From NCBI GenBank assembly GCA_017399965.1, contig JAFQAP010000027.1, positions 64,632-128,631 on the forward strand: a DNA stretch of 64,000 nucleotides. Reading direction: 5' to 3'. The stretch is from Clostridia bacterium. GTDB taxonomy: Bacteria; Bacillota; Clostridia; Oscillospirales; CAG-382. The position numbers and the translations under genes are program-made. The notes beneath the pieces are model-generated. The model saw only the letters and a list, made by a program, of their open reading frames with translations, was not told where the DNA came from and searched no databases. Shown in pieces: positions 58,828 to 62,402 of this stretch (positions are counted from its first letter, which is position 1; the number at the start of each line of letters is the position of its first letter).

Positions 58828-59037
58828 ATGAAGATAAGTTATAAAAAACTTTGGATATTGCTAATCGAAAAAGACATATCACCGGCTACATTGCGAAAGG
58901 ACTTAAATATTGCAACGGGTACTATGACAAAGATGCGTAAGAACGAGGAAGTTGCCTTATCGGTTTTATTGAGAATTTGTGAGTACCTAAATTGTAATAT
59001 CGGAGATATTTGTGATGCAGTCAAGACGGAAGATTAG
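58828..59037 (+). CDS. Small XRE/Cro-type helix-turn-helix protein
   Basis: 69 aa. ISPATLRKDLNIATGTMTKMRKNE is an HTH of the short YozG/HTH_26-like type. Confidence 0.8.
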   Translation: MKISYKKLWILLIEKDISPATLRKDLNIATGTMTKMRKNEEVALSVLLRICEYLNCNIGDICDAVKTED

Positions 59038-59060
59038 GTCTTTTGCTGAAAGGAGTAAAA

Positions 59061-59780
59061 ATGGCATTTTGCGTAAATTGCGGACAACAATTAGGTGAGG
59101 GAGCTAAATTCTGTACGAACTGCGGACAGACAGTTACAACTCACAAAACCGAAAGCTCTGAGCGCAAGACGGTTTATGATGGTGAAATACATAAATGCCC
59201 CAACTGCGGAGAAATCATTGATGCTTTTGTAACCAACTGTCCCGCTTGTGACTATGAAATAAGGGGTTCTAAAGCAGCGGTATCGTTACAACAATTTTAT
59301 TGGGATTTACATAGAGCTAAAAATTCAGAAGAAAAGGCTTCAATGATAAGAAACTATCCCATTCCAAATTCTAAGGAAGATATTGTTGAGTTTATGATTT
59401 TAGCTTCTTCTAACATAAGCGGTGAAGCAGACAAAAACATATTTGAAGCGTGGGTTGCAAAATTTGAGCAGGCATATCAGAAAGCACAGATTACTTTGCA
59501 AAACGATCCTGCATTTGCTCAAATTGAAGATATTTATGAGAAAACCGAAAAAGCGATTAATAAAGAAAAAATATCTCATACAACCGCTTCGGTGGGAAAT
59601 ATGATAACAACTTACTTTAAGTTTATGCCCAATCCCGTTTTTGCAGTTGTGTTGGTTTTGCTTCTTATATTTAATTTGGTTCGCTTGTTTAGCGGAGATT
59701 TTGCAGGCTTAGACATAATTTTTGATGCAATAATTTTGGCTGCTACATACGGCATTACAAACAAGAAAAACAAAAAGTAA
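59061..59780 (+). CDS. Double zinc-ribbon protein with C-terminal membrane helices
   Basis: CVNCGQQLGEGAKFCTNCG and CPNCGEIIDAFVTNCPACD (four CxxC pairs), a helical middle and two C-terminal hydrophobic helices. ATG after AGGAG. Confidence 0.7.
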   Translation: MAFCVNCGQQLGEGAKFCTNCGQTVTTHKTESSERKTVYDGEIHKCPNCGEIIDAFVTNCPACDYEIRGSKAAVSLQQFYWDLHRAKNSEEKASMIRNYPIPNSKEDIVEFMILASSNISGEADKNIFEAWVAKFEQAYQKAQITLQNDPAFAQIEDIYEKTEKAINKEKISHTTASVGNMITTYFKFMPNPVFAVVLVLLLIFNLVRLFSGDFAGLDIIFDAIILAATYGITNKKNKK

Positions 59781-59799
59781 TTGAAAGTGAGGAGTTTAT

Positions 59800-61158
59800 A
59801 TGTCGTTATTCGGAAAACCAAAGGCCGGTGGCTTTATGGATGAGATACGATGTGATGAACCGTCTTATCTAATATGGAAATGGCATCCGTCCGGCTCACA
59901 GCAAGGTAACAATAACCGTGAAAATGCAATCCGTTGGGGTTCATCTCTGCGTGTAAAGGATGGCGAGGTTGCGGTATTTGTCTACAAACAAAAAGATGGA
60001 ACTATGCAGGATTATATAGTTGGCCCCTTCGACCAAACTATAAAAACTGCCAATCTGCCTATCTTAGCCAATATCGTAGGCCTTGCTTATGAAGGCGGAA
60101 CGCCTTTTCAGGCAGAGGTTTATTTCATCAATCTTGCTCAAATCATTCAAGTAAAATTCGGTGTACCGTTCTTTGACGTTTATGATCCGAGATTCGAAGA
60201 TTTTGGTGTACCCGTTTCCGTTAGAGGAACAATCAGCTTTAAGATTAGCGATTACCGTGAATTTATCAAATTACATAGACTTAGCGATTTTAATCTTTCA
60301 GATTTTCAGTTGCAAATCAGAGATGCAGTTTGTCGCTATGTAAAAGATGTTGTGGCAAATGCACCCGCCACAAACAATATTCCGTTAGTGCAAATTGAAA
60401 CGAAAACCTCGCAAATTAATGATGTCATAGAGTACGACATTGGTGAGCGTTTTAAGGAAGCCTTTGGTGTAACAGTTTCGGGTGTGGATTTGTCTGCAAT
60501 AGAGCTTGATAAATCAAGCGATGGTTATCGCCAACTTATGGGTGTAACCAAAGACATTGCGGGGGCTACTGTTAAAGCCGAAGCTGAAGCGAAGATTAGA
60601 GATATTGCCGCAAAACAACGTATTGAAGCCGAGCATTATGAAGAAACGCTCCGTATTCAGCGTGAGGAAGGACAGTACGCACAACATAAGGCTACACAAT
60701 CTACTAATATCGGTGCGTTCCAAGTAGAAAAGCAAGCCGAAGTTGGTATAGCAGGTGCAAATGCACTCGGACAAATGGGTGCTAACGGTGCGGGAGATGT
60801 TAGTATTGGCGGTAACGGCGATGGTTTTAATATGGCAGCTATGATGGCAAGTATGGCTGTTGGCGGTGCTGTTGGTCAAAACATCGCAGGCGCAATGAAC
60901 AATATGATGGGTGGAATTAATCAACCTATGAGAGTCACACCGCCGCCCATTCCAACTTCAGCATATCATATTGCGATAAACGGTCAAGCAACCGGTCCTT
61001 ACAATTTGAATACTATCGCTCAAATGGTAAATGTAGGTCAAGTCAATGGTGATACGCTGGTTTGGAAAAATGGTATGGCTGAATGGATGAAAGCCGCAAC
61101 AGTTGATGAACTTAAAGGCTTGTTTTTCGTTATGCCGCCAATTCCACCAAGCGAATAA
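59800..61158 (+). CDS. SPFH (YdjI/COG4260-type) protein with Gly/Ala/Met-rich linker and C-terminal GYF_2-like domain
   Basis: The N-terminal 300 aa follow the COG4260 'virion core protein-like' SPFH pattern (LRVKDGEVAVFVY...NLPIL...FQAEVYFINL...VRGTISFKISD). The C-terminus YHIAINGQATGPYNLNTIAQMVNVGQVNGDTLVWKNGMAEWMKA is GYF_2-like. Confidence 0.75.
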   Translation: MSLFGKPKAGGFMDEIRCDEPSYLIWKWHPSGSQQGNNNRENAIRWGSSLRVKDGEVAVFVYKQKDGTMQDYIVGPFDQTIKTANLPILANIVGLAYEGGTPFQAEVYFINLAQIIQVKFGVPFFDVYDPRFEDFGVPVSVRGTISFKISDYREFIKLHRLSDFNLSDFQLQIRDAVCRYVKDVVANAPATNNIPLVQIETKTSQINDVIEYDIGERFKEAFGVTVSGVDLSAIELDKSSDGYRQLMGVTKDIAGATVKAEAEAKIRDIAAKQRIEAEHYEETLRIQREEGQYAQHKATQSTNIGAFQVEKQAEVGIAGANALGQMGANGAGDVSIGGNGDGFNMAAMMASMAVGGAVGQNIAGAMNNMMGGINQPMRVTPPPIPTSAYHIAINGQATGPYNLNTIAQMVNVGQVNGDTLVWKNGMAEWMKAATVDELKGLFFVMPPIPPSE

Positions 61159-61223
61159 TTTTAATATGGTTCCATTGCCGAATGGCAACAAAATAGATCA
61201 AAAAATTATCTGGAGGTAATATT

Positions 61224-62402
61224 ATGAAATGCAAACAATGTGGAACAGAATTTGAGGGAAAGTTTTGCCCTGAGTGTGGCGCAAAAACTGAGGCCGAAAT
61301 GCCCATAACCCCTCCACCAATCCAACAACAATCAGCTCCCGTGCAAACCGGAAAGGCTAAAAAGAAGAAAAAGCCGTTTTTCTTAAGATGGTGGTTTATC
61401 CTTCTTGCGATTATTGTCGTTGGCGTTATCGCTCTTAGTGCAGGTGGCGGTGGCGAGAAAATCGTTTGGGATGATATAATTTTAGGTGATATGTTACCCG
61501 AACCTCCTGCAAATAAAGGTGAAATACATACTAATTCCGCTGATGATCTTTGGATTGATATTAACGATCTTTCCGATAAGCAGTTCAGCGATTACGTTGA
61601 TGCTTGCAAAGAGAAAGGCTTTACTGTAGATGCTGAGTCTAATTCTTCTTCCTATGATGCTTATAATGCAGAAGGTTATAAATTAAGTCTTGGTCACTAT
61701 GGTAGCGATGCGGATATGAGCATTCAATTGGAAGCTCCTATGGAAATGACAACTATCACTTGGCCTGCAAGTGCTGCAGGTAAACTGTTGCCCACTCCAA
61801 AGTCCACAACCGGCAAGTTCTCTTACGAGTATGATGATAACTTCTTTGTATATGTAGGAAATACCTCAAGAGCCGATTATGCAGAGTATGTAAATGCTTG
61901 TTCCGAAAAGGGTTTCAATGTGGATTATAGCAAGGGTGATGACTATTATTACGCTGACAATAGCGAAGGATGGCACATTTCTGTTCGCTATGAGGGAAAT
62001 AATATTATGAGCATTGATATTGATGCACCGAGCGAGGATGATAATAACGATACCTCTACACCGTCCACCGACTCGTCAAATCAGACTTCTGAGCCTGATG
62101 CAACAGAAAAAGAACCTGATAAAGACACTTCTAATAATGGTGGCTTAGATCCTGATTTCAAAGCTGCAATGGATAGCTATGAGAAATTTATGGATGAGTA
62201 CGTTGCGTTTATGAAAAAATATAGCGCTAACCCGACTGATATGAGTCTGCTCACAGACTATGCTGATTATATGAGCAAATACGCAGACTTCGTGGAAGAT
62301 TTCGAGAAGTGGGAAGATGAAGAAATGAACGCCGCTGAGACTGCTTATTATATCGAAGTTCAATCGAGAGTAAGTAAAAAGTTGCTTGAAGTAGCTAACT
62401 AA
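61224..62402 (+). CDS. Zinc-ribbon / TM protein with two repeated extracytoplasmic modules and a helical C-terminal domain
   Basis: CKQCGTEFEGKFCPECG, TM helix WWFILLAIIVVGVIALSA, internal duplication (FSDYVDACKEKGFTVDAES...SIQLEAP vs YAEYVNACSEKGFNVDYSK...SIDIDAP), and C-terminus PDFKAAMDSYEKFMDEYVAFMKKY (possibly DUF6591-like, from memory). Confidence 0.65.
   Translation: MKCKQCGTEFEGKFCPECGAKTEAEMPITPPPIQQQSAPVQTGKAKKKKKPFFLRWWFILLAIIVVGVIALSAGGGGEKIVWDDIILGDMLPEPPANKGEIHTNSADDLWIDINDLSDKQFSDYVDACKEKGFTVDAESNSSSYDAYNAEGYKLSLGHYGSDADMSIQLEAPMEMTTITWPASAAGKLLPTPKSTTGKFSYEYDDNFFVYVGNTSRADYAEYVNACSEKGFNVDYSKGDDYYYADNSEGWHISVRYEGNNIMSIDIDAPSEDDNNDTSTPSTDSSNQTSEPDATEKEPDKDTSNNGGLDPDFKAAMDSYEKFMDEYVAFMKKYSANPTDMSLLTDYADYMSKYADFVEDFEKWEDEEMNAAETAYYIEVQSRVSKKLLEVAN

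Follow-up and report, generated by a model that had tools for sequence, protein, structure and literature searches.

Introduction

The ydjGHI genes of Bacillus subtilis (also called samGHI), which follow pspA and are under sigma-W control, encode an SPFH protein, YdjI, which we take to be a member of the Band_7_1 (PF13421)/COG4260 family. YdjI is soluble and reaches the membrane only through YdjG and YdjH, and it has a low-complexity linker (PMC8581546). Its C-terminus is a zinc ribbon, and YdjG is composed of two zinc ribbons, an NTF2-like domain and a transmembrane (TM) segment (PMC11237479, PMC8581546). Loss of YdjI alters membrane fluidity and stress signalling (PMC8581546; bioRxiv 10.64898/2026.02.06.704340). 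Here we describe a four-gene operon with an SPFH protein, found at positions 58828-62402 of a 64,000-nucleotide stretch of DNA (the window) from a Clostridia bacterium of the order Oscillospirales (GenBank assembly GCA_017399965.1, contig JAFQAP010000027.1, positions 64,632 to 128,631 of the forward strand). An earlier model-made reading of this stretch, for which no database was searched (the sequence-only reading), had compared the operon with pspA-ydjGHI, and its account of the B. subtilis genes agrees with the literature (PMC8581546, PMC11237479).

Other described systems resemble parts of the operon. Ltp, a lipoprotein of phage TP-J34 that acts in superinfection exclusion, combines an anchor and a spacer rich in Ser with a helical repeat domain of negative charge; this repeat domain stops DNA injection by binding the tape-measure protein (PMC3952083). 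In Clostridioides difficile, an inverton (invertible DNA segment) acted on by RecV switches CwpV, a surface protein blocking phage DNA entry (PMC4737114). Experiments have shown micromolar binding of a proline-rich sequence by the GYF_2 domain of GltJ, and in 44% of bacterial GYF proteins a zinc ribbon adjoins the GYF domain (PMC11135422).

No published description of the present gene set was found in our literature search, and the sequence-only reading had likewise been aware of none. The points that go beyond that reading are the wide spread of the gene set as a cassette, a conserved operator, proline motifs fitting the GYF domain, and the OFF state of the switch in the window. Our proposal, to which we give somewhat less than an even chance, is that the cassette is a self-regulated module, phase-variable in the window lineage, in which surface proteins docked on an SPFH/GYF platform with its zinc-ribbon anchor guard the envelope, most likely against phage DNA entry.

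Organization and distribution of the cassette

The genes are all on the forward strand: gene 1 at 58828-59037 (69 aa), gene 2 at 59061-59780 (239 aa counted from ATG; an alternative TTG start at 59043 is possible), gene 3 at 59800-61158 (452 aa) and gene 4 at 61224-62402 (392 aa), with intergenic gaps of 23, 19 and 65 nt according to the open reading frame (ORF) listing of the window. Stretches resembling ribosome-binding sites (AAAGGAG, GTGAGGAG and CTGGAGG) precede genes 2, 3 and 4, respectively, and that of gene 1 is weak. An intrinsic terminator at 62438-62468, readable on both strands (stem of 12-14 pairs, 9 G-C), closes the operon; a sub-threshold Rfam match on it was treated as chance. 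The ORFs, Pfam matches, AlphaFold models and terminator reading confirm the gene order, domains and spacing as first noted, and the view that the four genes form a co-transcribed module is supported.

A collection with one genome per species was scanned, and 477 loci were found to encode a relative of the SPFH/GYF protein (the product of gene 3). Single loci are cited below by L-numbers. The best 80 of the 477 are 70-98% identical to this protein and come mostly from gut Clostridia, with Streptococcus equinus, Gardnerella and further taxa also represented. At least 8000 clusters of the protein database are related to the SPFH/GYF protein; the Band_7_1 plus GYF_2 architecture is present in 120 of 120 among the matches listed, and is maintained down to about 36% identity. 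In 78 of the 80 loci there is a double-zinc-ribbon homologue (gene 2), which always stands immediately 5' of the SPFH gene in the same orientation, and in 69 an HTH homologue (helix-turn-helix protein; gene 1) lies upstream of the double-zinc-ribbon gene with order and strand kept. A DUF6591-type gene (gene 4) is present in 35 of the 80. The recurrence of the arrangement is far beyond chance, and the conservation of gene order that the sequence-only reading had asked about is evident.

Between the HTH and SPFH genes, one to three zinc-ribbon genes can be found. Beyond the SPFH gene, a further zinc-ribbon protein is often encoded, which has one or three TM helices and whose C-terminal part is large and variable. 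Median identity is 88% for the HTH protein (67 loci) and 75% for the SPFH protein, compared with 38% for the DZR and 40% for the DUF6591 proteins. This pairing of conserved HTH and SPFH proteins with divergent membrane proteins may be the signature of an arms race.

The SPFH/GYF protein and its presumed anchor

The product of gene 3 matches Pfam Band_7_1 (PF13421) at 7.8e-24 (residues 40-237) and GYF_2 at 1.1e-17 (residues 389-438), the two domains being joined by a Gly/Ala/Met-rich linker. Since no TM segment is predicted, the protein is probably soluble; Pfam gave no zinc-ribbon match for it, and its C-terminus is GYF_2. The gene 2 product has four CxxC pairs and matches Pfam Zn_Ribbon_1 and DZR. 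In its AlphaFold model, two zinc ribbons, assigned to the cytoplasm, are followed by a helical bundle (residues 76-187) and a C-terminal TM hairpin (residues 192-233), and a Foldseek search of this model against PDB gave no match below 1e-3. Across the gene 2 family, the cytoplasmic zinc-ribbon/helical region is conserved, with an invariant R-N-[FY]-P-I-P-N-x-K-E-D motif, and the TM part varies from one to five helices. By analogy with YdjG, this protein is presumed to be the membrane anchor of the SPFH protein. NCBIfam matches of operon proteins to VanU (for the gene 1 product), TcaA and GltJ were far under the cut-offs, reflected common small domains only, and were set aside.

The likeness to pspA-ydjGHI consists in an SPFH gene, with its low-complexity linker, directly after the gene of a membrane protein with a pair of zinc ribbons at its N-terminus, and in the presumed reliance of the SPFH protein on membrane partners for its localization. 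The differences are more numerous. The cassette lacks pspA, as the sequence-only reading had stated: PspA_IM30 was found neither in the annotated neighbourhoods, which extend to at least 9 kb on one side, nor among the listed flank families. It also lacks a TPM-domain YdjH, since TPM_phosphatase had no match in the four proteins or in 11 annotated neighbourhoods. Its SPFH protein ends in GYF_2, whereas YdjI ends in a zinc ribbon. In comparison with the published description of YdjG, gene 2 has the two zinc ribbons and the TM anchor, but its middle domain is an all-helical bundle before a TM hairpin in place of the NTF2-like domain. Furthermore, the cassette has its own HTH protein and operator, is mobile, is phase-variable in the window lineage, and has added outward-facing zinc-ribbon proteins. 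The YdjG/H/I-like trio that had been suggested is thus supported only in part: there is an SPFH protein of the family to which YdjI is taken to belong, and a partner that has in common with YdjG only the N-terminal double zinc ribbon and a membrane anchor, but there is no YdjH, a GYF domain takes the place of the zinc ribbon, and gene 4 is not YdjH-like. We regard the analogy as a fair lead for the scaffold-and-anchor part; as a claim of membership it fails because YdjH and PspA are missing and the C-terminal domain of the SPFH protein is different.

Variants of both proteins were observed. In L024, L038-L040, L044, L047, L050, L051 and L052, the double-zinc-ribbon protein is extended at its N-terminus by a domain of about 150-230 aa, which starts with MVDLKLE..EGI.., has no Pfam match, and may be a bacterial PH-like domain; in L092, a short DUF6591 protein (P0176) adjoins a bPH_1/bPH_3 protein. 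A 33%-identical SPFH relative (P0506) has a GrpE domain at its C-terminus instead of GYF, and the C-terminal adaptor of this SPFH subfamily is thus apparently exchangeable.

Proline motifs as candidate ligands of the GYF domain

When the operon proteins were searched against PDB sequences, the only match was between the GYF domain and that of GltJ (PDB 7z3c, E 1.6e-5). In essentially all homologues, the GYF domain is immediately preceded by [TV]PPP[IV]P and followed by [MI]PP[IV]P (PPPIP and PPIPP in the window). Of 24 single-zinc-ribbon proteins of the cassettes, 16 carry a PPP, PPI or PIP motif no further than 40 residues beyond the ribbon, compared with 1 of 140 background windows. The motif after the zinc ribbon of gene 4 is PITPPPIQ, and gene 2 has the invariant R-N-[FY]-P-I-P-N loop. 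From the PPPI-type motifs after zinc ribbons, the match to GltJ and the proline binding of GltJ, we infer that the GYF domain probably docks proline motifs of the zinc-ribbon membrane proteins. The SPFH protein's own PPPIP and PPIPP motifs may act as competitors of those in the accessory proteins, or may link subunits.

In GltJ of Myxococcus xanthus, as presumably in the cassette, GYF_2, zinc ribbons and proline-rich ligands are brought together at the inner face of the membrane. The GltJ type carries zinc ribbon, linker and GYF in one polypeptide, whereas in the cassette the GYF domain is fused to SPFH, the zinc ribbons belong to other proteins of the same operon, and the MglA/MglB/AglZ context is absent.

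Gene 4 and its relation to Ltp

The gene 4 product matches Pfam DUF6591 at 4e-114. Its AlphaFold model begins with a zinc ribbon, a disordered linker and a TM helix (residues 55-73), with a probable outward topology for what follows: two beta-beta-alpha-beta4 modules (residues 98-170 and 196-267, pLDDT >90), a disordered acidic Ser/Thr/Asp spacer (273-306) and a three-helix tail (310-391). Foldseek gave no match below 1e-3 for this model in PDB, and the best structural matches among viral proteins were a phage "host cell surface-exposed lipoprotein" (E 5.4e-6) and a "lipoprotein" (E 1.2e-4). A homologue, P0222, shares 72% identity with gene 4 across residues 1-331 and has the same position in an inverton-bearing cassette, but its helical tail is exchanged for two Lipoprotein_Ltp (PF07553) repeats (1.8e-27).

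Judging from the model, gene 4 appears to encode an outward-facing protein with a layout like that of Ltp of the Streptococcus thermophilus phage TP-J34, namely an outward membrane anchor, a spacer rich in Ser and Thr and, at the C-terminus, an acidic domain of helices, and in P0222 the tail position is occupied by genuine Ltp repeats. Unlike Ltp, the gene 4 product has as its anchor a TM helix, preceded by a zinc ribbon in the cytoplasm, instead of a lipid, lacks an Ltp repeat, has two additional beta modules, and is encoded in an SPFH operon of a mobilizable element instead of a prophage lysogeny module. A PHROG "Sie-like" match, which was weak and covered only the Lys-rich/TM stretch, was discounted. 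In L012 and L047, DZR and DUF6591 modules are fused in one protein, and this points to genes 2 and 4 working together.

The 65 nt that separate gene 4 from the SPFH gene (61159-61223) include a small hairpin, TTGCC-GAAT-GGCAA, at about 61176-61189, which might attenuate gene 4 expression.

Operator and invertible promoter

The own small regulator ascribed to the operon is indeed a Cro/C1-type HTH protein (gene 1; Pfam HTH_26, 8e-19). The presumed site of this protein is an operator-like palindrome on the forward strand at 58721-58736, TCTCAAGAAGTTGCGA, with the consensus TCGCAA-N4-TTGCGA. Allowing at most one mismatch, the consensus is found 5' of the HTH gene in 52 of 66 loci and in 0 of 1320 shuffled controls, and we infer that it is likely to be the operator of this highly conserved protein. 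The distance from the operator to the sigma-A -35 element is 27/28 nt in 35 of the 45 scorable loci, 6/7 nt in 6 and 15-17 nt in 3. Because the main classes, 6/7 and 27/28 nt, are about two helical turns apart, the operator would act from one face of the DNA, and its position 5' of the -35 element suggests activation. Five loci with the 28-nt spacing (L004, L017, L018, L032 and L071) have a half-operator-like GCGAA element seemingly about 6-8 nt upstream of the -35 element, i.e., where the full operator is located in the short-spacing class, and two binding sites 5' of the HTH gene are possible there from the sequence.

Constitutive sigma-A promoters are common among the cassettes. In the window, the operator is retained and no good promoter lies 3' of it, and the same is true of the other inverton-bearing loci. 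The native promoter is degenerate in the window lineage, and the inverton there supplies a strong promoter. Upstream of the operator, a tyrosine recombinase gene at 57507-58352 (forward strand; Phage_integrase 2e-26 with a SAM-like N-terminal domain) is presumed to encode the invertase of the adjacent switch. The protein is XerA/XerD-like, its matches to FimB/E-type invertases being weak, and its homologues adjoin the same kind of inverted repeats in L001, L005, L008, L024, L031, L045, L052 and L094. The repeats in the window, 22 nt each, are at 58380-58401 and 58628-58649, with 95% complementarity and the core ACATAAT-CAGC-ATTATGT; the core is itself palindromic with an asymmetric centre of 4 nt, as a site of a tyrosine recombinase would be, and ACATAAT-N4-ATTATGT is present in 8 of 8 recombinase-bearing contigs checked. 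The repeats enclose an invertible segment of 226 nt (58402-58627) with a strong extended -10 promoter, TTGCAA-17-TGnTATAAT, on the reverse strand (58462..58434), and such a promoter is found within nearly every inverton segment examined. Thus an adjacent recombinase, flanking repeats and an internal promoter, by which an inverton is recognized, are all present.

In L052 and L070 the segment has the orientation opposite to that in the window, L001, L008 and L022 and the flanks are collinear, which means that inversion really occurs; both orientations were seen across assemblies and not inside one sample. In the window, the promoter faces away from the operon into a terminator hairpin between the recombinase gene and the switch (58355-58378, reverse strand; 10-pair stem with 6 G-C, then a T-run), which by its sequence would stop leftward transcription coming from the OFF-state promoter, and a forward-strand terminator inside the segment (58584-58610) would block read-through towards the operon. 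The switch in the window is therefore OFF, and it is also OFF in 8 of 10 other lineages examined. The sequence-only reading had placed the operon directly 3' of a putative invertible promoter and considered phase variation possible; the promoter is genuine, and the flipped copies speak for the variation.

A downstream gene for a zinc-ribbon ectodomain protein accompanies 8 of 9 inverton-bearing cassettes compared with 12 of 58 others (p 1.4e-4). There is also a variant with no HTH gene (L094, 1688-2076; L095, 834-1222), in which a 353-nt inverton directly abuts the double-zinc-ribbon gene (gene 2) and gene 4 has Ltp repeats. The cwpV/RecV system is similar in that a tyrosine-recombinase inverton lies 5' of a surface-protein gene, most cells or assemblies are OFF, and phage DNA is proposed to be kept out in a manner resembling superinfection exclusion. 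It differs in that the proteins are unrelated, and in that the cassette has its recombinase adjacent, the switch itself bears the promoter, and what is regulated is a four-gene scaffold operon.

Mobile elements and neighbouring genes

By exact-protein look-ups, the cassette was found as cargo on at least three unrelated backbones of mobilizable elements. That of the window consists of genes for a serine recombinase, ParB, relaxase, NikA, ALP_N, Cys_rich_VLP, a sigma-like protein and the tyrosine recombinase, followed by the cassette, two genes described below and TnpV, with a GMP-synthase fragment about 2 kb beyond the last element gene. The second (D5_N primase, cassette, ParE/Phd, serine recombinase) occurs in four different left-hand contexts, and the third, of about 10 kb (tyrosine integrase, NikA, AAA_25, MobA_MobL, TnpV, cassette), adjoins guaA in one place. 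The relaxase, NikA, ParB, serine recombinase and TnpV around the cassette agree with its earlier description as cargo of a mobilizable element. Homologues of mobile-element hallmarks were detected in 33 of the 80 loci, and none with a narrow query set in the other 47. The flanks of 27 hallmark-less loci hold mostly housekeeping genes, with rumA-type methyltransferases five times, and for this reason the statement that the cassette is always on a recognizable mobile element is unsupported; the locus of S. equinus ATCC 9812 has a chromosomal appearance. A megablast search of the region against plasmids gave nothing, and a protein search of 72,556 plasmids gave relatives at about 25% identity only. 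Among phage records, the cassette is on only one contig, an unverified 22-kb faecal one.

Between the cassette terminator and TnpV of the window, two genes lie on the reverse strand (62472-63176 and 63239-63982), for which no significant match was found in Pfam, NCBIfam, PADLOC or PHROG. A homologue of the former also follows the cassette in L022 (78% identity), and the latter has 310 aa in L081; they could be further cargo or a defence pair. Another reverse-strand gene of the window (56305-57201), conserved on this element type between a ParM-like gene and the recombinase gene, encodes a protein of 298 aa with weak matches to sigma-70 region 4/ECF, and by its sequence this may be an element-specific sigma factor.

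Known or candidate defence genes stand immediately 3' of the SPFH gene in some loci, namely AbiH, a ThsB-type TIR with a second TIR protein, PDC-S22/KilA-N and DUF4062 (L012, 3625-4545; L038, 3254-3742 and 4184-5386; L010, 7727-8593; L004, 7405-8199). PADLOC "mad" matches in the flanks of the 27 loci were ABC ATPases and presumably generic methyltransferases, and were ignored. A PHROGs search of the four operon proteins gave nothing meaningful.

Proposed function and alternative explanations

In the proposed mechanism, the HTH protein would bind TCGCAA-N4-TTGCGA and control its own operon. The soluble SPFH/GYF protein would oligomerize beneath the membrane, tethered by the tail-anchored gene 2 protein as YdjI is by YdjG and YdjH. 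Its GYF domain would bind the PPPI-type motifs after the zinc ribbon of accessory membrane proteins such as that of gene 4, and this docking would cluster their variable outer domains. The assembled module would guard the membrane against phage DNA injection or a similar outside assault, to the benefit of both the mobile element and its host, and phase variation would limit the cost or exposure of the module. Phage DNA injection is named as the most likely target because gene 4 is built like Ltp, with an anchor, a Ser/Thr/Asp-rich spacer and an acidic helical tail. The matches of its model to phage lipoproteins, the Ltp repeats of P0222, the association of invertons with ectodomain genes, the precedent of CwpV and the defence genes 3' of the SPFH gene in some loci also speak for this target.

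Several points weigh against this proposal. The Lipoprotein_Ltp repeat is absent from gene 4 of the window, whose tail matches DUF6591 only, even at E up to 1; it occurs in only 1 of 120 homologues among the matches listed, and Ltp-type repeats are common in surface proteins with no proven role in exclusion. A defence function had been among the suggestions of the sequence-only reading, and none of the four proteins had a match in PADLOC-DB v2.0, candidate systems included, at E up to 0.01; in the independent set of 27 loci, the flanking defence genes are singletons only. The minimal cassette of many loci has no ectodomain protein, and the core function therefore cannot be surface display alone. 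Small Cro-type HTH proteins, moreover, usually act as repressors, whereas an operator upstream of the -35 element would fit activation.

The main rival explanation, which we consider rather doubtful, is protection from membrane stress of the YdjGHI/SamGHI type: the SPFH platform would stabilize or repair the membrane against bacteriocins, host peptides, bile or pH, and the cassette, which may work with a PspA encoded elsewhere, would be a fitness or resistance cargo of mobile elements. The Band_7_1 domain of gene 3 with a linker of the kind described in YdjI, the YdjG-like partner with its double zinc ribbon and membrane anchor, the many minimal cassettes, and the fact that small mobilizable elements of Firmicutes typically carry resistance cargo all agree with it, as do the need of YdjI for membrane partners and the changes in membrane fluidity and stress signalling upon its loss. 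Yet neither PspA nor a TPM/YdjH protein is in the annotated neighbourhoods, GYF replaces the C-terminal zinc ribbon of YdjI, the membrane proteins have diverged strongly as the cytoplasmic parts stayed conserved, and the Ltp swap and the mostly-OFF switch fit a conflict system better than housekeeping repair. Another alternative is abortive infection, in which the TM hairpin or multi-TM part of the gene 2 protein would be a latent membrane-disrupting effector, held in check by an SPFH cage and released on infection. In other systems, SPFH proteins are known to surround membrane proteases and channels and to control them. A 24-mer cage of an SPFH protein has been described (cited in PMC10936438), known Abi and Thoeris genes adjoin the cassette in some loci, and cargo on mobile elements with a switch mostly OFF would suit such a system. 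We nevertheless think it very unlikely, since PADLOC gives no match, the conserved part of gene 2 is cytoplasmic with a TM region of variable helix number, no sign of toxicity is seen, and constitutive sigma-A promoters are common. An equally slim chance is given to a role in element transfer, either as surface or entry exclusion against related elements or as stabilization of the envelope during mobilization through a borrowed conjugation pore. The recurrence beside relaxase and TnpV genes on three backbones and the one outward-facing component speak for this role; the 47 loci without a hallmark for the queries used, the chromosomal-looking locus of S. equinus ATCC 9812 and the absence from plasmids except for distant relatives speak against it, and the movement of the cassette between unrelated backbones marks it as cargo and not as backbone.

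Our preferred explanation, a guard of the envelope against DNA entry, has a broader form, which we hold to be rather unlikely as it stands, though its chance is a real one. Here the cassette would represent a new anti-phage or anti-invader class of Gram-positive gut bacteria, in which an SPFH/GYF scaffold organizes interchangeable, zinc-ribbon-anchored surface "warheads" (the DUF6591 tail, Ltp repeats and DUF4839 among them) and these keep DNA from crossing the membrane; the system would be spread by mobilizable elements and switched by invertons in some lineages.

Significance

The cassette is among the commoner uncharacterized gene sets of human and animal gut Firmicutes, being represented in hundreds of species and in protein clusters that number in the thousands. 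Small mobilizable elements repeatedly have it as their main or sole cargo. Its operator, its proline motifs and the homologue with swapped-in Ltp repeats are each open to direct testing. If the cassette does guard the envelope, SPFH scaffolds, whose roles in bacteria are poorly understood, would be tied to defence or membrane protection, bacterial GYF domains would gain a concrete class of ligands, and gut commensals would gain another phase-variable trait.

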